Positions 1,806 through 41,850 of a stretch of DNA of 64,000 bases are shown here, in pieces. Position 1 is the first letter of the stretch, and the number at the start of each line of letters is the position of its first letter. The notes under the pieces were generated by a model that ran no database searches, was not told the DNA's origin, and saw nothing but the letters and a program-made list of their open reading frames with translations. The translations under genes and the position numbers were made by a program. The stretch comes from Neocallimastix sp. 'constans' (lineage: Eukaryota): NCBI GenBank assembly GCA_050613775.1, contig JBODTK010000105.1:310001-374000 (forward strand). The letters are read 5' to 3'.

Positions 1806-2339
1806 GTTATTATTAAATATTATTTATAATAAAGCTTATCTATTAAATCTATAGATTCTAAATATTAATATATATATTATTTTATTTTATCTATTTTCTT
1901 TTATTTTTATTTTTATTTTTATTTTTAATTGTTTTTTATAATTTTATTAATAGCTTTCCTCAACTATTCCGTTTATCATAACTAACTGTTATTAATATAT
2001 ATTAGTAAAAAAATTTTATTTTTATATAAAACTCTCATGTATAATTATTATATTTAATATTATTAATATTAATTACTTTTATTTATTTTAATAAATTTAA
2101 AACTTATTCGTTTTTATTTTGGTCTGAATTCCCAGTTGTCTTTAATTATTATATTTAAATAAATTTAACTTTATGCGTTATTACTAATATTATAATAAAT
2201 ACAATTTAATACCAATCAAAATATATTTTTAATGTCTTAAAATGCTTTATTTATTCTTAATTATATTATAATTTTCAAAATAAATTTCCTAAAATAATAT
2301 AACTATACTAGTAAACATCCCGGATATCTCCATTCATTT

Positions 2340-2720
2340 CGATATGTGGGATCTTTATGTGTTATTATTTTTACTTAGTATAATTATATTATTTTTATTT
2401 AATATTATTATTTTCTATCCTAGAAATTAACCAAGTTAACCTCCGTCAAATAATTAAGCGAAGGATCCATATTACTAGGATTATTTTACATACAAACCAA
2501 TAGTTTAATAATAAACTAAATATAAAATAAAAGTATATAAATAATATATCTAATAATATCAACTTTATACTTAATTATATTATAATATAATAAATTATAA
2601 CTATTTATTATATCATAATATATATAAGAATTATGCATTTTTAGTATATACTTTAACTTTAAGATAAATAAGAATATTTAACTAATATATAATACTTTTA
2701 GTTAAGTGGAAGACATTAAT
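2340..2720 (-). mobile_element. Partial LTR (TGATATGCGGGAC family) with adjacent degenerate PBS at 2319-2332
   Basis: Starts cGATATGTGGGATCTTTATGTG and is similar along its length to the solo LTR 14683-15383. CCCGGATATCTCCA lies just inside it. Confidence 0.6.
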
Positions 2721-2760
2721 ACAGCCTTTGAATTATGGGATTATTTAAAGGCTTATTACT

Positions 2761-3130
2761 GTGAAACTGAAGAAACTATTACTACTTAGTAGAGAAATTC
2801 CAACTGAAAAATCTACTACTCTTAATGGAGAAATTCCAATTCCATCGGAAGAAACTACTACTCTTAACAGAGAAATTCCATCTGAAAAAACTACTACTAC
2901 TATTACAAAAGCCACTGATACTAATGAAGAGGAATATGAAGAAAAAAAAAGAAAGAAGAAGAAAATGAAACAATCACTATTAATAGAGATGTTCCAACTA
3001 AAGAAACTAATATTACAACTGCAGATATCATTGCTACTAATGATTAATCAATTTTTATTTTGGAAAATACTAAATATACTATGATAAACAAAGACGAAAA
3101 TAATTTATTAATTAGCAATAGTTTAATAGA
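2761..3130 (+). pseudogene. Thr/Glu-rich low-complexity coding remnant with imperfect ETTTLNREIP(S/T)E repeats
   Basis: 3-4 imperfect repeats of actactcttaa..gagaaattcca, with frameshifts. Confidence 0.4.
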
Positions 3131-3626
3131 ACCTGCTGTTGATATTCAGATGCAAGTTTTAGACCAAAGGATAATGATGATAATGTAAAATCAACCAATA
3201 GACAAAAAATATACATAAGATGTGCTCCTGTTTATTGGAAACCAAAAAAGACAAAAATCCACAGCTAAAAACACAACTGAAACAGAATTTAATACAACCG
3301 CTGACTTTATTAAAAAAAATTATAAAATTAAACAATTTAAAAAAGGAAATAGAAGATTCCATATTTGTAATGGATTATTTAAAGAAAGAGTTTATTAATA
3401 TTTTGCATATTAATTCTAATGATATACTTGAGAATATCTTAACAAAGAAAATTAGTATAAAATTTTTCTATTACTTTATTGATAACACCTCTAATTATTA
3501 ATTTTTATTCTTAATTATATTTTGATTAAAGAAATTTTATTTTGAGTGAATTGTTAGATTTTCAAATTAAATTCCTTTCATCAAAATTACAAAAATAAAT
3601 TTTTTCGTACGAAATGGATGAAATTA

Positions 3627-4389
3627 TAGTTATATATTATAAATTTTTATTTAATATTAATTAAATCAAATATTATTAATTTAGTTTAATCTTTTATAAT
3701 AAAAAAGAGGCCTTTCCAATAAAATCAAATTAGGATTAAATTAGGTAAAAAAAATACAATAATACTGTAAAGATTTAACAAATCTTTAATACATTAAATA
3801 GTTTAATTTTTCGTATAATTAATTTATTTAATGTATATTTTTTTTAAATATAATATTTATTGAAATAAAATTTAATTATTTTTTTAAATTGAAAATATTT
3901 TTTTAATTTAATTAATTAGTTTAGTTTGCCTAGTTTAATTTTAAATAGTTAAATATTAATTTATGAATAATCATAAATAGTTAATATTAATAAAAATAGT
4001 TTTTCAATATTAAATATATAATTAAAATTATTAGAAGTATTAAAATAATAAATAAAATAAATAATTTAATAAATTAATTTTAGTTTTAGTAAATTAATAA
4101 ATAATAAAATTATTAAAAATCTTTTGTTTATAAATAAATAGCTTTATATATATTAAATAACATCATATATTAATAATGTAATAAAAAAATATAAATACAT
4201 GTAATTTTTCTCAATTAAATCGATGTATTAGTTATTAACTATTTTACAGTTAATAACATAAAAGAAAGTTATAATTAATACAAGAATCTATTAATAAAAG
4301 AATTTACTTATTTTTATTTGTTTAAATTGTGTAGTGTTTTTTATTATTATAATCTGTTTTTATTGACAGATTGATTACAAATACTAATA
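3627..4389 (+). repeat. Left inverted repeat of the Rep-bearing element (3627-3765 plus 4385-4389), split by a solo LTR
   Basis: Matches the reverse complement of 7753-7899 (atattaattaaatcaaatatta, tttaatcttttataataaaa..aggccttt.caataaa, aaaaaaaataca.taatact.ata). The match continues across the LTR insertion point. Confidence 0.75.
3766..4379 (+). mobile_element. Solo LTR (same family as the LTRs at 33677 and 39889)
   Basis: TGTAAAG...GATTACA termini, 5-bp TSD AATAC (3761-3765 / 4380-4384), highly similar to 33677-34341. Confidence 0.95.
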
Positions 4390-4892
4390 TTGAAATAATA
4401 AAAAAATTATTGTATATAAAAAGAAAAAAAATAAAGATTTAAAAAGAAAAAAAAGATTTAAAAAAATTTTTTAGGAAGAATTTTTTTTTAATAAAAAAAA
4501 GAAGTTATTTGGAAGGAGTCTAGACACATATACTGATCTATAATTTGTGTAATATGAGAATTTTTAGTGTAATATTAAATGTTTTAATCACAAAGGTGTG
4601 TCATTATATTAAATTTGGTGTTATATTAAATGTTTCATGTATTAATATTGACTCAGAACAATATAATGTTGATTTACGGGATATACAGAATATATACTTA
4701 ATCGTGGTTTATATATGTTTAATATATACGGTAATACATTGGAATATATCGTGTAATATATATTATTATATGTACGCATATATGAAGGAATGCTTGTTGT
4801 ACATATATTACTTTATACTTTGGTCTGGTGTCGACCAATACCTTGCATGTCTCTATTTTTTGACTTCGTGTTTTCAAAGAAATAGTGCAGGG

Positions 4893-4934
4893 TCAAACTA
4901 TTTCCGTAATACTAGGGTATCGGAAACAGTTTGA
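4893..4934 (-). promoter_or_regulatory. Rolling-circle replication origin: stem-loop with nonanucleotide TAGTATTAC
   Basis: Minus strand reads TCAAACTGTTTCCG-ATACCCTAGTATTA-CGGAAATAGTTTGA, a 14-bp stem with one G:T pair. TAGTATTAC is at 4914-4906, about 200 bp upstream of rep. Confidence 0.88.
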
Positions 4935-5137
4935 ATCAATTCATTTGAATATACTGTAATATATTGTCAATTTAATTTGTGTAAAAACTTTTTGAACTAT
5001 TTATCAACTCTACTTATTATAAAAAATAGTTATTTTTTTTATAAAAGGATCAAAAAAATCTTTAATTTTTAACTCACATCTTTATTTTTTTAAATAACTA
5101 AAAGATAAATAAAATCTTATTATTAAACAAAAAAAAA

Positions 5138-6610
5138 ATGGCCGCTTCTCGTTATTTCGCTTTCACTCTTTCTAACTACTCTGATGAACAAGAAAGAATC
5201 ATTCAAAATTATGCTATGGAAAATTCGAATGTCATGCATCTATTTTACGGTCACGAAAAAGCTCCTACAACAGGAACTCCACATCTTCAGGGATGCCTTT
5301 GTTTAAGAAAAAAATGCAGGCCGACTACTATTAAAAATTTACTGAACATTGAAGAACTTCATATTGAACCATGTAAAAAGGTATATGAAGCTAATTTAAA
5401 CTATTGTAAAAAATGTGGTGATATATGGCAGTTTCTATCTGAGTTTATTAGAGAAAATCTAAGGAATGATAAACAAAACTTATCGTCAAGCTGTGGAATT
5501 AGCAAAGAAAGGTAGATTTTCTGATATTGATCTTGAAAAAATGTTGAAATATGATAATATAATTAAAAACTATATGTGGAAAATTTGGAAACTGATAATC
5601 TCTATTTAACTAACGAAAAAGGTGATTTCTTCAAAGAATTTAATTTATTTATACACGGAAAAACTGGTACAGAAAAAAGTTTCAGAATATACGAGATTGT
5701 TTATGTTTTAAACGAATTTTGGAAACTTTACTGTAAACTCAGAGATAGAGAACATAAATCTTTAAGAGTTTATAAAAAATCTCGCAATAAGTGGTGGGAT
5801 GACTACATGGGTCAAGAAATTGTAGTTATCGAAGAATTGGTGTCAATTAGCTGCTTCGAATTTAAAGACCTGGTCTGACCAATATGTTTTTCCAGGTGAA
5901 GTAAAGGGTGCTAATATTGAAAAGATTAGACCTCGTTTTTGGATTCTAACATCTAATTACAACTTAAAACAGCTTTTTACAAATAAAGATGGGCAATTAA
6001 TTTGAGGATTATGAACCAATTAACAGGAGACTTTATTCAATACACCTTAATTCAATACACGATGATATAAACAGGCCAAATTTAGATAGATTAGCGCTAT
6101 ATTACGATACAATAAAATATATAAAAACAAAAAATTTTTAATAATTTTATCCAAACATTCAATAAAAGAAAAATTCAATTTGATAATTATGAGTTAAATA
6201 AAAAACAGAAAATTATTCAGGAGTGCTTCTCTGAATCACAAATCGAAGAAATTCAATCCAACGTTCTTGAATTCAACAACAATGCAACTGAAGAACCGGA
6301 ATCCGAAGAATCAGCTACCAGTCCAGTTCAACCAGAAGAAGAAGAAATCAATGAAGATGAAAAAGAGGAACTCTTAATAAAGGCCTCTTTTACTGAAGAA
6401 GAACAACAAAACTACTTTGAAGAATGGTATGAAAATACCAATTACGAAGATCAAAACGATCCAACAATAAAGGATTTAAGGGATAAATATCCTACTTTTG
6501 ATTATTTAAAACAAATTTTAAAAAATAAATATAGATTGAATAATTTAAATACAATTATTAAAAAAAGAAATAATAAAGGAAAGGAACCTGATAATAGTTC
6601 AACATTATAA
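5138..6610 (+). pseudogene. rep: CRESS-DNA-virus-like Rep (HUH endonuclease plus SF3 helicase), frameshifted, with acidic C-terminal extension
   Basis: RCR motif I FAFTLSN, motif II PHLQG, motif III YCKK. Linker YRQAVELAKKGRFSDID in a shifted frame. Walker A GKTGTEKS, KWWDDY, Walker B VVIEE, KTWSDQYVFPGEVKG, motif C ILTSN, Arg finger PINRR. A Glu-rich open frame ends at TAA 6610. Several frameshifts. Confidence 0.93.
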
Positions 6611-6821
6611 AAATTAGTTTTATTTTTTTTTATTTTTATTAAATAAATGTATTAATAAGTTTTTAATCTTGTAATTTTTAAATAAAATTAATAAAGTTTT
6701 ATAAAATTTGTAATATCTAGTTTTGTAAATATAACGAAGGGAAGTTATATTTATGAAGTGTATTTTAATAAATAAAAATTAAACAAAAGAAAAATTCTTT
6801 ATTTTAGTGTTTATTAAATTT

Positions 6822-7269
6822 GGGAGAGTTTCATTTCGCCAAGTGGCGTATTATTATAATGTTGCATTTCTCTAAGTTTCAATTCCCCAGGTTGCATTTC
6901 GACAAGTGGCTGTTGATATGAATAAATGAATGAATAAATAAATAAAATTTCAAAATAATTTTTTTTAAACTTGTTTTTATTATATTTAATAATTAATTAA
7001 AGATACTTTTTAATATTTTGTAAAATAGCAATAAATAATTATTTATTTTATTAAATTATAAAAATATATTTAATTATAAAGATATATTTTAATATTTTGT
7101 AAATTTTTTTAATATTTAAGAATTTACTTTAAAATTATAAATACATTAATAATATTTAATTTTTTATTTATTGATTTATTTATTTAATAATTTTCAATTT
7201 GGCGAAATGAAACATTTTTAATAATACGCTACATGCTTTCAAAAAAAATGGCCAAAATACACCACTCCC
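6822..7269. mobile_element. Non-autonomous MULE (Mutator-like) MITE
   Basis: GGGAG...CTCCC ends, imperfect TIRs with repeated CATTTCGCCAA-like motifs, and a perfect 9-bp TSD ATTAAATTT (6813-6821 / 7270-7278). Confidence 0.9.
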
Positions 7270-7313
7270 ATTAAATTTATTATTTTAAATAATAATAAAT
7301 TTTGTATTAAATT

Positions 7314-7541
7314 TTATATTAAAAAGTTTTCATTAAAAAAAACTTTTGTAAATTGAATTTCAATATACCAAGTCTTTTTACCTAAGTATCTGTATATGAT
7401 TTTTCTGGCTCTAGAGTCATCTTTTTCAGAGATAGCTTTACCATATAAGATATTTCCTCCTGTTTTCTCAGTAGTATTATCATTCAAAACGATGGTATGA
7501 TCGAGATTAACATCCTTTAATCTTCCTAATAATTCCTCCAT
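7314..7541 (-). CDS. Small hypothetical ORF (75 aa) convergent with rep, inside the inverted repeats; may be a gene remnant
   Basis: ATG-initiated ORF with protein-like composition in a locally less AT-rich patch. No recognisable motif. Confidence 0.35.
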   Translation of the reverse strand: MEELLGRLKDVNLDHTIVLNDNTTEKTGGNILYGKAISEKDDSRARKIIYRYLGKKTWYIEIQFTKVFFNENFLI

Positions 7542-7752
7542 ATTTTATAGTTTCTTTCATTAAGAATTATTCTCTCTATTTTGTTTTGTAATAAAATAAC
7601 ACACTTCTTTGATTTTGTTTATCTTATTATAATGAAAACTTTAATATAAAATTTAATAAAAAATTTATTATTATTTAAAATAATAAATTTAATTATACTA
7701 AAATAAAAATTTTTCTTTTGCTTACTTTTTATTTATTAAAATGAACTTTTTT

Positions 7753-7899
7753 GTATCAGTATTAATGTATTTTTTTTTAATAAAATTTTCATTTATTGAA
7801 AAGGCCTTCTTTTTATTATAAAAGATTAAATTAAATTAATTTAATATAATATAATATTTGATTTAATTAATATCAAATAAAATTTTATAATAAGTAACT
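7753..7899 (-). repeat. Right inverted repeat of the Rep-bearing element; outer end abuts a copia LTR
   Basis: Reverse complement aligns with 3627-3765 plus 4385-4389. Confidence 0.75.
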
Positions 7900-7910
7900 T
7901 TATTAATTAT

Positions 7911-8081
7911 TGTTTTAAGATAGATAATGAACACATAAGAACTAATGTGCAATAAATTTTCTTTACATGATATTTATGGACATATAAATATGACTTAGAC
8001 CACATGACACATTATTGTAACCTGACATGTAATATATAAATATATATACTAATGTATACTAATAATCCATGTAAGTTAACA

Positions 8082-8123
<42 letters not shown>

Positions 8124-9760
8124 GTTGTTGTTGTTGTTGTTATGTATATATTTAATTTTATTTATTTATTTATTAATATATTTAATATAAACAAGTCTGA
8201 GATTAAAATAAAAATAATCAGGTGAAATATATATACTAAATTTAATCAAATGATTTCGTGATTTACATAAAAATAAAAAATAAGTTATTTACATGAAAGA
8301 ATGATATTAACATAAATAATGTTAATCATACATAAAATAATAATTATATAAAAAATGAAATATAAATTAATATATTAAAATTTATTAATATTATAACACT
8401 CCCCCTCAAATGTAATTTTTAGTTATTAAAAATTATATTTGCGAAGGATTTAATTTTGTCTCCATTAGTGATTTTTGTTAAAATATCTGCTAAGTTTTCA
8501 GAGCTTTCAATGTGTTTTAATTCAACTATTTTCTTCTTAATGTTGTCTACATTAAAGTGATATTTAATTGATATATATTTTAATTTAGGATTTAAATCAC
8601 CATTTTCCATAGAAATTTTACATGCATTATTATCAATAAAAATAGTTATTGGTTTATTAAATCCTATTAATTCAAAAGGAATATTCTTGATCCATAATAA
8701 TTTCTTGATGCATTGTGAAGCATTAATATATTCTGCTTCAGCGGTTGAGGTAGCAATTATAGTCTGTTTTTTAGACATCCAAGAGATTGGATTATTTCCT
8801 AAAAGAATAATATGTCCAGAATTCGATTTTCTGTCTTTAATGTCTCCAGCAAAATTCGAATCAGTATAAGCAACTATGTTTCCTTGACCATCATAAGTTA
8901 TCTTGTAATCTATAGTGCTGTTTAAATATTTCAAGATGTTTTTTACTTTTCTCCAATCGGTCATTGTAGGATTTTCCGAATTTCTGGCGGCTTTGTGTAC
9001 GGCAAAAGAGATATCCGATCTGGTTGCTTTGGATAAGAATATTAGCATACCAATAGCGCTTTTATATGTTGTTTTATCATATGGATCATTATTCTCAGAA
9101 ATAATATTATCTCCAACGCATGGAGTTGTAACTTTTTTCATATTATTAATATTGAATTTATTTAAAATGATGTTAATAAAATGTTTTTGAGAAATTGAAT
9201 AATTGAGAAATTGAATAATTGTTCTATTAAAAATTCAGATATTGTCAGATACCATTGGCGTCCTGACTGTTTTAATCCGTAAAGTGCCTTTCTAAGTTTC
9301 CAGTATCCCTTCCCAAAGTTAGCATCTCCAGGCGGAATAGTTGTATAAATTTCTGTGTCAATTTTAGCATTAAGGTAGGCAGCTTTAACATCAAGTTGGA
9401 AAATATGCCATTTGAATTTTGAAGCAATGGCAATCATCAATTTTAGATCATCGATATTTAGAGTAGGGGCAGAGGTCTGAAAGAAGTCCACACAAAATAA
9501 TTGTCGGAATCCTTGTGCAACAATACGTGCTTAGTGTTTAATAACAACACCAGCACTATTAATTTTATTTGTGCATATCCAAATTAAAGGTAAAATTCTT
9601 TTGCCTTTTGGGACATGTTTAACAAATATCATTATTATCATAAAAGTTGCGCAATTCATCATCCATGGCTTGTTCCCATAATAAATGGTCTTTGCAATTG
9701 ATTGCTTGAATATAATTGCTTGGGACCATGTTTTGAATTTAAGCAATAATTTTGTTGTTA
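7911..9760 (-). mobile_element. Ty1/copia 3' fragment: RT-RNase H remnant, PPT and 3' LTR (7911-8398)
   Basis: QLDVKAAYLN, KALYGLKQSGRQW, AYTDSNFA..DRKS, STAEAEY, ENLADILTK. PPT GAGGGGGAG is followed by TGTTATAA at 8398. The other terminus TGTTTTAA is at 7911. Confidence 0.9.
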
Positions 9761-11574: not shown

Positions 11575-12520
11575 ATATCAAAATATAATAAAAATTATTA
11601 TTAAATATATCTATTAAAATCTTTTATTAATATCAAATATTATAAAAATTATTATTAAATATTCTTATTAAAACCTTTTATTAATATCAAATATAATAAA
11701 AATTATTATTAAATATTCTTATTAAAATCTTTTATTAATATCAAATATAATAAAAATTATTATTAAATATTCTTATTAAAATCTTTTATTAATATTAAGT
11801 TATTAAGTATAATAAAAATTATCAAATATTCCAATAAAAATCTTTTATTAATATCAAATATAATAAAAATTATTATTAAATATTCCAATTAAAATCTTTT
11901 ATTATTAAATATTCTTATTAAAATCTTTTATTATTAGATATTCTTATTAAAATCTTTTATTATTAAATATTCTTATTAAAATCTTTTATTAATATTAAAT
12001 ATAATAAAAATTATTATTATTAAAACCTTTTATTAATATATTAATATCAAATATAATAAAAATTATTATTAAATATATCTATTAAAATTTTTTATTAATA
12101 TCGAATATAATAAAAATTGTTATTAAATATATCTATTAAAACCTTTTATTAATATCAAATATAATAAAAACTATTATTAAATATATCTATTAAAACCTTT
12201 TATTAATATCAAATATAATAAAAATTATTATTAAATATATCTATTAAAATTTTTTATTAATATCGAATATAATAAAAATTATTATTAAATATATCTATTA
12301 AAACCTTTTATTAATATCAAATATAATAAAAATTATTATTAAATATATCTATTAAAACCTTTTATTAATATCAAATATAATAAAAATTATTATTAAATAT
12401 ATCTATTAAAATCTTTTATTAATATTAAATATAATAAAAATTATTATTAAATCCTATTATTAAAACTTTTTATTAATATCAAATATAATAAAAATTATTA
12501 TTAAATACTCTTATTAAAAA
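11575..12520. repeat. AT-rich minisatellite, about 54-bp unit
   Basis: Unit TATTAATATCAAATATAATAAAAATTATTATTAAATATATCTATTAAAACCTTT repeated about 17 times with truncated variants. Confidence 0.9.
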
Positions 12521-33472: not shown

Positions 33473-34395
33473 CTAATAATGAAAAGATAAAAGAAAACAT
33501 ACAGTATTAGTTAATAAAAATTCCATTGAACCTTATAATTTGTCTAAAGATTTAACAAGTGCTAAATGTAATATTTCATATGTTCAACTTTTAGATATTT
33601 GTCTCAAATTACGGTCTGAATTAAGTAAAATTTTAAAAATAGAAAAATTAAAAATTTCTAGTACTATGAATATAGATGAAAAGATTTAATAAATCTTTAA
33701 TACATTAAATAGTTTAATTTTTCGTAATTTTAATTTATTTAATGTATATGAAATTTTAATTTAATGTATATGAAATTTTAATTTAATGTATATGAATTTT
33801 TTTTTAAATATAAAATTTGAAATAAAATTTAATTTTTTTTTTAAATTGTAAATACTTTTTTAATTTAATTGTTTAGTTTAGTTAGCCTAGTTTAATTTTA
33901 AATAGGTAAATATTAATTTAGGAATAATCTTAAATAGTTAATATTAATAAAAATAGTTTTTCAATATTAAATATATATAATTAAACTTATTATAAGTATT
34001 AAAATAATAAATAAAATAAATAGTTTAATAATTAGTTTTAGTATATTAATAAATAATAAAATTATTAATTAAAAATCTTTTGTTTATAAATAAATAGCTT
34101 TATATATATTTTTAAATAACATCATATATTAATAATGCAATAAGAAAAAAATATAAATACATGTAATTTTTCTCAATTAAATCGATGTATTAGTTATTAA
34201 CTATTTTACAGTTAATAACATAAAAGAAATTTATAATTAATACAAGAATTTACTAATAAAACAATTTACTTATTTTTATTTGTGTAAATCGTGTAGTGTT
34301 TTTTATTGTTATAATCTATTTTAATTGACAGATTGATTACATTAACTAATACCCAGTAAGATTTAAACAAAACACGTTATAACAAGTAAAAAACT

Positions 34396-37600: not shown

Positions 37601-40061
37601 ATCTTATCGAAAGATGGTTTAAAGGTTGATCCTAATAAAATTTAAGCCATTCTTGATTGGCCTGTTCCAACCACAGTTAAGGAAGTTCAATTTTTTATTG
37701 GTTTATGCAATTATTATAGGATTTTTATTAAAGCTTCTGCTAAAATCGCCCGACCTTTACATAAACTAACAAGAAAAAATGTAATTTTTAACTGGGGTAC
37801 TGATCAACATAAGGCATTTGATAAATTGAAAGAGTTGTTCACCACTGCTCCTATTTTGAGAAACCCTGATTGTAATAAGCCTTTGGTTGTTGAAACTGAT
37901 GCTTCTAATTTTGCTGTTGGTGTGATTCTTTCTCAAGAATTCGATGGTCAATTACATCCCATAGCTTATATCTCGTCTAGCTTAACCAAATCAGAAAAGA
38001 ATTATCCAATTTACGATAAAGAACTTCTAATAATTAAAGTTGCTCTTGAGGAATGGCGTCACTATTTAGAAGGTGCTCTTTATCCTTTTACAATTTATAC
38101 CGATCATAAAAATTAGACTTTTCCTAGAAAACCTGAAATGCTCTCGCAACGTCAAATCCACTGGTATGAATTTCTCTCTAATTTCGATTTTAATTTAGTT
38201 TATCGTGTTGGTAAGAAGTCCAGAAAACCTGATATCTTATCTAGAAGAAGTGATCATCTATTTAATTACTCTCAGACTGTTTCTTGTCGTGTTATTAACT
38301 GTAATGCTTCTGATGATTGTTTATGTAATTCAATTTTAAATTCACTTAAAGATGATGAAATGTAACAAAATTTAAACTTTTCTTTTTAATGATAATAAAG
38401 ATACTGCTCCTATTAGAAATATTGATAAATGTGTAATTGATGATGAAGGATTTCTTCTCTATGATGATTTAATCTATGTTCCGGAAAATACTTGTACAAG
38501 AATTCTAGAAATGCACCATGATTCGGTAACAGCTGGTCACTTTGTAAATAAAACTTCAGATTTAATTTACAGAAACTTTTGGTGGCCAAAGTTACGACAT
38601 GATGTTAAGAAATTTATTAAGTCTTGTGAAACTTGTAGTCGTGCTAAAGTTCCAAAGCATAAGCCGTATGGTTTGTTGTCCCCATTATCCACACCAAATA
38701 GAGCATGGGCTGATATTTCAATGGATTTCATTGTTGAATTGCCAAAATCCGAAGATATGACTACTATTATGGTGGTTGTTGATTGTTTAACAAAGATGGC
38801 TCATTTTATTTCTCTTCGTTATCTTCCTACTACTTCTATTGCCGTTGATATTTTTATTAATTCTATTTTCAAATTTCATGGTTTCCCTGATTCCGTTATT
38901 TCTGATAGAGGTACCCAATTCACTTCTGAATTTTGGAACAGATTATGTGACTTACTTTGTATCAAGCATTAGTTTTCAACTTCAAATCATCCTCAGACTG
39001 ATAGTCAAACAGATGGGGTGAATGCGATATTGGAACAATATCTTCGTTGTTATATAAATGAACGACAAAGCAATTGGGTTGATTTATTACCTTTCGCTGA
39101 ATTCGCTTATAACAATACCCTACGACAATCTATCAACCAATCCCCATTCTTTGCTAACTATGGATTCAATCCTAGATTTAGCCTAGAAATTCCATCTAAT
39201 GAAAGACCTCACAGAGCTGATCAAAGAGTTAAAGATATTAATGAAAATATTAAATTTCTGAAAGAAAACTTAGATAAAGCTAAGGAAACTTACAAAAATA
39301 TGCGGAAAAAAGAAGATTACCCTCACCTGATTTCCAGGTTGGTAACAAAGTTTGGTTACTTAAAGGAAGTGCTACTAAGAATGTTAAAAAGAAACTTGAT
39401 GATCAAATTCTTGGTCCTTCTGAAAGTGTTGAGAAAATTAGTTCACTTGCTTATAAACTTAAACTCACAATTAATATGCGTTGCCATCCTATTTTTCATA
39501 TATCATTACTTGAACCTTATCATGAAAATGAATTTGAGAACAGAAATAAAAGAAAAAGGAAGAATATTAATTTGACCACTGATATTTTTGATAAATTTCC
39601 AGAAAAGATTGTAAATGAGAAAATATAGAGGAAAGAATCGTTTTCTTGTATCTTGGAAAGGACTTGATTCTGATGAGGATACTTGAATTGATGAAGATCA
39701 AATTCATGATAAACAATTGATTTAGGAATATTATCGTCGAACCAGAAAGAATGGGTCAAACGTAGAAGAAGATTCTTTGAGTGATAATAAAATCTATGTT
39801 AGACATAGATATCAACCATTTGTAATTGACCTACCAGCAAATGGACTAAATCGTATGTTTCGCAGGAGCTCGACTTAAAGGGCGAGATTGTAAAGATTTA
39901 ATAAATCTTTAATACATTAAATAGTTCATTTTTTTGTACAATTAATTTATTTAATGTATATGAAATTTTTTTTAAATATAAAATTTATTGAAATAAAATT
40001 GAATTTTTTATTTAAATTTAAAATATTTTTTTAATTTAATTAATTAGTTTAGTTAGCCTAG

Positions 40062-40822
40062 TGTAAAGATTTAATAAAATCTTTAATAATTAATTATTAC
40101 ATAATTAATTAATGTAATAAAATTACATAAATTTATGATTTACGTATATGAAAATTAATTATAAATTTATGTAAACTTTTCATAAAGGAAAAATTATTAT
40201 TTAAATAATTTTGGATTATAACTTTAATCTAAATAATTTAAGTTAGTTAATTTTGTTTATTTAAAATAGTTATTCTATTTAACTTAGTTAAATTAGTTTA
40301 GTTAGTTTAAAATACTTTAAAATTAATTTCGGAATAGTTTTAAATAGTTAAAATTAGTTTAAATAGTTTATAAAAATAATTTTGAATTGTAAATATATAA
40401 ACATTATTATTAATAATATTTATATAATAAATATATAATAAATGAGTTGTTATTGAATTTAATTATTATTGTAAATAAGTTGAAAGTTTATTGAATTAAT
40501 TATTGTTTAGTTTAGTTAATTATTATTTAATAAATTTATTAATAAATATTTTGTTTATAAATAAATAGTAATATATGTAAATTAGATAGAAATAATATAT
40601 TATAATGTAATAATGAAAAAATATAAATACATGTAAATTTCTATAATTAAATCGATGTATTAGTTATTGACTATATGATAGTTAATAACAAAAAAGATAT
40701 TTAATTTTTTTAATTAATAAAGATTATTTTATTTAAAAAAAAAGAATTTTTATTACGTGTTCTTTTTTATTTTGGTGTTAAAATTTGTTATTTGTAATCT
40801 GTTTCTGATAGAACTCTTTACA
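40062..40822 (+). mobile_element. Solo LTR of a related subfamily inserted in the 3' LTR
   Basis: TGTAAAGA...TCTTTACA termini, 5-bp TSD CCTAG (40057-40061 / 40823-40827). Confidence 0.93.
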
Positions 40823-41850
40823 CCTAGTTTAGTTTTAAATAGTTAAATATTATTTAAGGAACAATCTTAAATAATTAATAAAAATAGTTTTTCAATATTA
40901 AATATATAATTAAAATTATTATAAGTATTAAAATAATAAATAAATAAATAATTTAAAAATTAATTTTAGTTATAGTAAATTAATAAATAATAAAATTATT
41001 AATTAAAAATCTTTTGTATATAAATAAATAGGTTTATATATATTAAATAACATCATATATTAATAATGCAATAAAAAAAATATAAATACATGTAATTTTT
41101 CTCAATTAAATCAATGTATTAGTTATTAACTATTTTACAGTTAATAACATAAAAGAAATTTATAATTAATACAAGAATTTATTAATAAAAGAATTTACTT
41201 ATTTTTATTTGTTTAAATTGTGTAGTGTTTTTAATTGTTATAATCTGTTTTAATTGACAAATTGATTACAATAGTGAAAATTTCGTTTATAATTATGAAT
41301 ACAATGAAATTAAAAGTAATAATAATTTTAAAGAAGACGACTTAGGTATTGTTCTAGCCTTTGTCGATAATCTTGAAAATAAGTTGTTTATAGATTCCGG
41401 TAGCAATTTAAATCTTATTTCTCTTAATTATTTTAATTCTCTACCTGATCAATACGAAACTGTAGGTATTTGCCATGGTCGTATTTGCGAAGCTTTAGGT
41501 GATGATACAGTCACCGACACCATGGTTATAAATGTTCTTATTAATACTTATTCTTTTCATGCTAACTTTTGTATTATTACCCATAATACTAGTTATTTCG
41601 ATTTATTAATTGGTCTTAAGACTATTGCTGATAATTATTTATTTATACATCCTATTGCAAAAGCATTATGTCATTTTAATTCTTATGATTCTTTTGATAT
41701 TATTACGCCTTTATTGGAAATTCAGGAAGCCGAATTAATTAATTGTTTTATTATATATATTAATTATAGTAAATAAATTAATACTTTAAATTATAATAAT
41801 AATATTGCTATTAATTCTTAAAATTTTATTATTAAGGAAAATACGGTTTC

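Follow-up and report, generated by a model that had tools for sequence, protein, structure and literature searches.

A probable endogenous CRESS-DNA virus fragment nested in a foldback repeat of an anaerobic gut fungus

We analysed a stretch of 64,000 nucleotides (nt) of Neocallimastix sp. 'constans' DNA (contig JBODTK010000105.1, positions 310,001 to 374,000; hereafter the window). Positions 3625-7902 of the window hold a rolling-circle replication origin and a replication initiator (Rep) gene of the type found in circular Rep-encoding single-stranded DNA (CRESS) viruses, both framed by inverted repeats. A first-pass annotation had considered this arrangement a possible undescribed mobile element, in which a Rep with HUH and superfamily 3 (SF3) helicase domains was bounded by repeats of its own. 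The analysis favours another reading, to which we assign a probability of roughly 0.6: the locus is a decayed endogenous CRESS-DNA virus fragment, made of the origin and rep, nested in a host foldback repeat. The inverted repeats most likely represent the arms of a separate foldback of about 836 nt and not the termini of a Rep element, and the inverted-repeat frame around Rep is most likely an accident of nesting.

The argument starts from the geometry of the repeats. On the right, the foldback arm is one contiguous block of 279 nt (7624-7902), in which an inner and an outer half follow each other at a distance of 6 nt. On the left, the same two halves are separated by exactly 4390-6755, an apparently virus-derived segment of 2,366 nt that carries the origin and, on the plus strand, rep; the right arm is contiguous at the site that corresponds to this split. 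The left outer half (3625-3765) matches 7755-7902 in reverse complement (blastn E about 2e-17) and continues for 5 nt more, at 4385-4389, beyond a solo long terminal repeat (LTR). The left inner half (6756-6821 and 7279-7341, matching 7748-7624) becomes continuous once a miniature inverted-repeat transposable element (MITE) and one copy of its target-site duplication (TSD) are removed; in reverse complement, its first part matches 7685-7748 at 87.9% identity over 66 nt, and its second part matches 7640-7693 at 98% over 54 nt. Since the inner and outer repeats are adjacent on the right and split by 4390-6755 on the left, the Rep segment appears as a third insertion into one foldback arm.

When the LTR, the MITE and the 2,366-nt segment are all taken out, the rebuilt left arm measures 275 nt and can be aligned over its full length with the right arm of 279 nt. 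In this global alignment 239 of 292 columns are identical, and its score of 317 compares with -22 ± 16 (maximum 33) in 300 shuffles; the alignment runs through the Rep junction with a 5-nt gap. Counted by substitutions, the outer half (123/137 identical) and the inner half (116/125) are equally diverged (Fisher p 0.51). The whole locus is accounted for: its 4,278 nt are the sum of 836 nt of foldback, 2,366 nt of Rep segment, 619 nt of LTR with TSD and 457 nt of MITE with TSD. The outer pair of repeats, about 150 nt long, had been recognised in the first-pass annotation and is real, but the inner pair had been overlooked; likewise, the repeat match does continue across the LTR site as had been described, but for only 5 nt (TAATA versus TGATA) before the Rep segment begins. 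An HUH-SF3 mobile element bounded by its own repeats is not supported, because the Rep segment splits one of the arms and the arms are absent from related loci: neither the arms, nor the centre of the foldback, nor its small open reading frame (ORF) were found in any of the 158 loci described below.

Both later insertions proposed at the outset, each with a perfect TSD, were recovered. The solo LTR (3766-4379, plus strand) belongs to a Ty3/gypsy family, ends in TG..CA and is flanked by the 5-bp TSD AATAC (3761-3765 and 4380-4384); relatives that are 90-93% identical lie at 33778-34341, 39889-40066 and 40823-41270, around the gypsy ORFs of an element at 33.7-41.3 kb. The MITE (6822-7269) resembles Mutator-like elements (MULEs), carries subterminal GTTTCATTTCGCCAAGT repeats and is flanked by the 9-bp TSD ATTAAATTT at 6813-6821 and 7270-7278. 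Between the arms lies a centre of 282 nt (7342-7623; GC 27%) holding a 75-codon ORF (7314-7541, minus strand) that the inner repeats frame. This ORF has no Pfam match and no Atlas hit, and no homologue other than itself among proteins of near length (longer forms were not searched). The outer inverted repeat has no further copy in the window beyond short AT-rich matches.

The Rep itself is a pseudogene (5138-6607, plus strand), with neither an intact reading frame nor an intact Walker A motif. Three-frame translation showed that the frame changes five times, giving the pieces 5138-5440, 5466-5572, 5579-5851, 5856-6002, 6004-6141 and 6143-6607; aligned with eight relatives, these pieces cover the whole Rep family alignment in order. 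The identification of a CRESS-type Rep was borne out: Viral_Rep (PF02407) matches 5138-5440 (E 3e-7, 31 bits against a cutoff of 26), and RNA_helicase (PF00910, SF3 type) matches 5579-5875 (E 4.1e-6, 27.7 bits against a cutoff of 21.5). HUH motifs I-III (FAFTLSNY, PHLQG and NYCKK) align with those of the relatives, and the SF3 motifs VVIEEL and ILTSN are present. The Walker A motif reads GKTGTEKS where the relatives have GPTGTGKS, and so includes a G-to-E change. With a single catalytic tyrosine (Y1, YxxK), HLQ as motif II and an SF3 helicase, this Rep is of the viral type. An acidic ORF at 6143-6607 falls within the Rep family alignment: it starts ...FNKRKIQFDNYE..., and its counterpart in the related protein P0003 is ...YNKRKIDFDEYE... 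By this alignment, the ORF is the C-terminal tail of Rep and not a second gene.

The frame changes are not assembly errors, since an independent metagenome contig (L001) has the same ones: it matches the window at 5098-6593 over 1,496 nt with 0 mismatches, the sole difference being a run of 10 versus 11 A residues that lies upstream of the Rep ATG, outside the ORF. The locus is also represented by a public gene model, LY90DRAFT_507378, a hypothetical protein of 294 aa on a 598-kb contig of Neocallimastix californiae, which is 100% identical to the window over 89% of the HUH piece. This model spans the frame changes by calling introns and thereby loses about 200 residues, which every relative has without interruption; the omitted parts are the conserved linker, motif C and all sequence between the frame changes. 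It is likely an annotation artefact. Among sequencing runs, X1 and X9 contain 97-99% of the sampled words of this stretch, the runs that contain it include animal faeces metagenomes, and over 4511-6500 the matches of the RNA run X16 were all of low identity and low complexity.

The rolling-circle origin is a hairpin at 4893-4934, 204 nt upstream of the Rep ATG; it has a 13-bp stem with one mismatch and folds at -13.1 kcal/mol (z -5.9), as good a fold being reached in 0 of 200 shuffles. Its 13-nt loop, GTAATACTAGGGT, occurs once in the window against 0.04 expected, and contains the reverse complement of the canonical nonamer TAGTATTAC; the nonamer thus lies on the minus strand, at 4906-4914, opposite to rep. 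Iteron-like words are present on the plus strand at 4547-4759: in a word count, GTGTAATAT occurs at 4547, 4567 and 4751, and TGTAATAT also at 4955. They may be binding sites for Rep. The cluster of hairpins that had been proposed around the origin was only partly confirmed, since the hairpin at 4893-4934 is significant but those at 4530-4650 fold no better than shuffles (z 0.05). At the edges of the Rep segment, a hairpin on the 3' side (6722-6757, plus strand; -5.4 kcal/mol, z -3.0, 4 of 200 shuffles as good) is weak evidence of structure, and the 5' end shows none (z 0.66). A terminal direct repeat of the segment, as expected from a circle of more than unit length, was not found (score 29, shuffle mean 28). 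As the first-pass annotation had stated, there is no capsid gene in the window: a capsid profile found nothing in its 2543 six-frame pieces (best E 0.63), in a search where the Rep profile found five Rep pieces.

Relatives of the Rep were collected from protein and nucleotide collections. Of 26 longer candidates found with the HUH piece, 9 passed E 0.001; of 2,224 found with P0003, 51 passed E 1e-10, and none of these 51 comes from a named virus. At least 40% identity to P0003 is reached by 36 of the 51, including five gene models of Anaeromyces robustus on four contigs and the N. californiae model that is 100% identical to the window; the other relatives are metagenome proteins, and among the longest of their contigs a length of 7.1-7.35 kb recurs (7104, 7115, 7193, 7251 and 7350 nt). 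A metagenome scan gave 80 loci (279 of 416 pattern matches confirmed), among which the only close ones are L001, which is the same locus, and two further contigs, L002 and L003; identity is about 25-33% in all others. The best of 78 loci from a viral collection is 38% identical.

In a quick maximum-likelihood tree of 54 Rep rows, from which P0001 (the same locus) and P0010 (the small ORF) were left out, the window Rep falls in a clade of 39 rows together with the fungal gene models, L002, L003 and the Reps of the 7-kb contigs (SH-aLRT, the Shimodaira-Hasegawa-like approximate likelihood-ratio test, 100; stem 0.99). This clade is separate from 15 Reps on contigs of 1.2-3.3 kb. Within it, the A. 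robustus models are spread over at least two starred subclades and interleaved with metagenome sequences, a pattern that fits repeated endogenisation. Two of these models, P0004 and P0006 (313 and 540 aa), lie on one 51-kb contig and are sisters in the tree (SH-aLRT 99), which suggests a local duplication or a tandem integration.

The closest relatives with a capsid gene, L002 (7,177 nt) and L003 (7,397 nt), are collinear, have a GC content of 27-28%, and encode Reps that are 43% identical to P0003. About 210 nt upstream of rep, both have a hairpin with the same 13-nt loop as the window (CGTAATACTAG[G/T]GT) and a different stem sequence. The strand opposite to rep carries four large ORFs, of which the one adjacent to the origin encodes a protein of 293-295 aa with a basic N-terminus. 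The Circo_capsid hits of the L002 and L003 proteins themselves are sub-threshold (E 0.075 and 0.018); the protein belongs to a family with 168 representatives at E <= 0.001 and 95 at E <= 1e-10. We aligned 51 of 150 listed relatives (near-full-length single matches) with the proteins of the two loci, and 19 of these 53 family members match Circo_capsid at E <= 0.01 (best 7.3e-7). Moreover, its Atlas feature hits are capsid clusters of Cressdnaviricota (0.94). No match was found for it among PDB sequences, and 159 pattern stretches from a collection of viral contigs yielded 0 confirmed relatives. The three other large ORFs have no Pfam matches. The first-pass annotation had held that Rep copies beside a normal capsid gene would speak against its proposal, and such copies are found in L002 and L003.

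Neither contig has terminal inverted or direct repeats. A linear single-stranded DNA virus with inverted terminal repeats, one of the forms suggested for the window element, is therefore not supported, and the absence of the foldback arms from the 158 related loci argues in the same direction. When the end of L003 is joined to its start, an ORF stays open for 38 more codons, which suggests that L003 may be a circle. Compared with the window, the non-Rep ORFs of the two contigs gave no tblastn match, and at the nucleotide level the non-coding ends of the Rep segment gave only AT-rich noise against them.

Other features of these two contigs deserve mention. On the minus strand of L003, a 633-aa ORF (1846-3744) contains about five diverged tandem repeats of about 240 nt (80 aa), an unusual cargo for a CRESS-type genome; its L002 counterpart has a weak immunoglobulin-like hit (Big_9, E 0.09). 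A conserved, GC-richer non-coding block that starts TTAATTAGGGGGTC lies at 70-200 in L002 and 170-300 in L003, distant from the rep-proximal origin hairpin. At the other end (6847-7176 in L002, 7119-7397 in L003), the last part of rep is overlapped, in a different frame, by a small coiled-coil-like ORF that is cut off by the contig end in both cases; this ORF may be an independent gene or belong to a Rep variant made by splicing.

The simplest history of the locus is one foldback of about 836 nt, with arms of about 275 nt and a 282-nt centre holding an orphan ORF, that received three insertions in its left arm. The host foldback would be older than the Rep insertion. The double-stranded replicative form of a virus of the 39-row clade, or a fragment of it, would have been joined into a break in the foldback arm by illegitimate end-joining, with no TSD and with the apparent loss of about 5 nt of target. 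Decay of rep would have followed, as would nearby insertions of the MITE and of an LTR element of which a solo LTR is left; the events may have come in another order, as the LTR site is 5 nt from the Rep junction. We predict that the element is inert today, although a related Rep acting in trans might in principle be able to nick its intact origin hairpin. Thus, the proposals of an integrated replicon and of a passive association with terminal inverted repeats survive in a modified form, as a virus-derived origin and rep fragment inside a foldback that resembles such repeats.

Several observations weigh against this history. No Rep-free copy of the foldback was seen and there are 0 other copies in the window, so that the case for a pre-existing host repeat is entirely geometrical. 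The left edge of the Rep segment is imprecise: it lies 5 nt from the LTR site, and 4 of these 5 nt match the right arm. The lack of a TSD fits end-joining but would equally fit an HUH-mediated insertion. Runs X1 and X9 contain a second version of 4609-4881, about 89% identical, on contigs of 304 and 246 nt (29 and 26 substitutions, respectively, and 3 gaps each), and X1 also holds short Rep-like and origin-like contigs at similar depth. The Rep/origin family is thus probably multi-copy, in the genome or in the community, which could reflect amplification as well as repeated endogenisation. Finally, the capsid assignment of L002 and L003 is made by transitive homology, the Pfam hit of L002 itself being below threshold, and a structure model of the capsid-like protein built from two sequences was unusable (predicted local distance difference test, pLDDT, 40).

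An alternative history takes the outer repeats as the termini of a non-autonomous terminal inverted repeat (TIR) element, with the origin and rep as its cargo, and has an unrelated MITE (6756-7748) arrive later at the inner edge of the right TIR, bringing TIRs of its own of about 125 nt and the small ORF. The outer repeats are indeed real, the Rep/origin family is apparently multi-copy, and there is a precedent in Tuber melanosporum, where a Rep-like ORF lies in a transposon with 37-bp TIRs (PMC3198968). A TTA/TTAT match flanking the outer repeats (3624-3627 and 7900-7903) points the same way, but weakly, as it is an AT-only match of 3-4 bp, such as often arises by chance at about 80% A+T. We consider this history unlikely, since the nested MITE would have had to land, by coincidence, within about 6 nt of the inner end of a TIR, and it shows no TSD (TTTATG versus TTTTGT, 3 of 6 positions). 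Equal divergence of the inner and outer repeats also argues against two elements, no transposase was found, and the Rep segment interrupts the left arm, so that it is not enclosed by two complete repeats. Moreover, no HUH Rep is known to act on TIRs.

It has also to be considered whether the 2,366 nt are a complete capsid-less HUH-SF3 replicon, or a rolling-circle transposon, that inserted through strand transfer mediated by Rep, without target duplication, and of which this copy has since died. Its discrete ends, which are set by the uninterrupted right arm serving as the empty site, would be expected of such a unit, as would the lack of a TSD, a content of origin and rep with no capsid remnant, the several Anaeromyces gene models and the second copy of the origin region at about 89%. 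The hairpin at the 3' edge (z -3.0) also speaks for this reading; it is weak, however, and the 5' end is unstructured. Moreover, the intact nonamer lies midway along the unit and not at a junction, which argues that joining did not take place at the nick site; the clade includes genomes of about 7 kb with a capsid gene, and the A. robustus copies are divided between at least two separate starred clades, with metagenome sequences among them. On balance such a replicon is quite improbable; if it were real, the Rep copies of Neocallimastix and Anaeromyces would be its progeny and not independent viral fossils. Hardly credible is the view, which the 294-aa model would imply, that a viral Rep has been domesticated here as an expressed host gene. 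In its favour, apart from the model itself, six RNA-labelled runs contain 53-59% of the sampled words, a signal that is not localised; against it, the called introns of the model remove the residues that all relatives keep contiguous, and the Walker A motif is damaged.

The surroundings of the locus are those of a repeat-rich host chromosome. GC content ranges from 13 to 41% in 2-kb bins of the window and is about 20% around the locus. Retroelements abound: ORFs for Ty3/gypsy reverse transcriptase, RNase H and integrase lie at 15.8-23.9 kb and at 35.4-39.6 kb, one of copia type lies at 8419-9141, and the flanks of the locus consist of copia, gypsy and MULE sequences, showing that the Rep segment is embedded in host chromosomal DNA. 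Two C-terminal fragments of copia-like pol genes face each other across the foldback (3220-3501, plus strand; 8419-9141, minus strand); they are unrelated and not copies of one another, and no inverted homology of the flanks was found beyond the foldback arms. Immediately to the right of the foldback, an (ATT)n run is followed by a (GTT)n microsatellite (8077-8135), and further on (11575-12519) there is a tandem array of about 18 copies of a 54-nt AT-rich unit that match at 86-88%. Rfam gave 0 matches in 3000-9000, and a scan for bacterial promoters and terminators stayed at chance level.

Rep fossils of two gut fungi thus share one clade with AT-rich, capsid-bearing contigs of about 7.1-7.4 kb, which makes the Neocallimastigomycota a candidate host for these metagenome genomes, and one that can be tested; the lineage from which the fragment came likely infects anaerobic gut fungi. 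A transcriptome survey lists a gemycircularvirus-like transcript for Pecoramyces (PMC9501391). Nothing specific on a CRESS-type Rep or a single-stranded DNA virus of Neocallimastigomycota was found in the literature, in a search that did not extend to the supplementary tables of PMC9501391 and PMC3198968. Beyond the question of the host, the locus illustrates in detail how a TIR-bounded element can be mimicked by nested insertions into a foldback, and how invented introns carry a public gene model across frameshifts.

Replicons with nothing but an origin and rep do exist: alphasatellites and nanovirus DNA-R are circles of this content, about 1-1.4 kb in size. Compared with these, the origin and rep of the window are more simply explained as a fragment of a larger genome. 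For large CRESS genomes the Gandrviridae offer a precedent; they are described as 5.2-9.1 kb long with a bacilladnavirus-like capsid (PMC11945456). L002, L003 and the 7.1-7.35-kb Rep contigs are in this size range, and several extra ORFs are a further likeness, the comparison being one with the published description only; as to the capsid, by contrast, 19 of the 53 aligned family members match Circo_capsid.

Helitrons and Replitrons are eukaryotic HUH Rep elements that insert without classical TIRs. By the account in PMC10288648, Helitrons encode a Rep with two tyrosines (Y2) fused to an SF1B helicase, and Replitrons have no helicase. The window Rep is not that of a Helitron, having a single YxxK and an SF3 helicase (PF00910) in place of Y2 and a Pif1-like SF1B helicase, nor that of a Replitron, as a helicase domain is present.

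The closest parallels are endogenous CRESS Reps, some of them inside transposons, which were described in 2011 (Liu et al., PMC3198968). As in the cases set out there, a Rep lies in a nuclear genome, degraded by frameshifts, in repeat-rich DNA or transposons; here the host belongs to the anaerobic gut fungi, and rep came in along with its origin hairpin, which, like the nonamer in it, has stayed intact, a combination that stands apart from the cases in the text of that paper that we compared. The same source describes the geminivirus-like transposon of Tuber melanosporum as having 37-bp TIRs, transposase ORFs and many copies that are more than 95% identical. Both are found in fungal genomes and have a Rep-like ORF flanked by inverted repeats, and the description given there also mentions no obvious TSD; in contrast, the present locus lacks a transposase, does not occur a second time in 64 kb, and has a Rep segment that interrupts one of the arms. 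All together, these comparisons place the locus probably among endogenous CRESS-virus fragments and not in a new class of mobile element.

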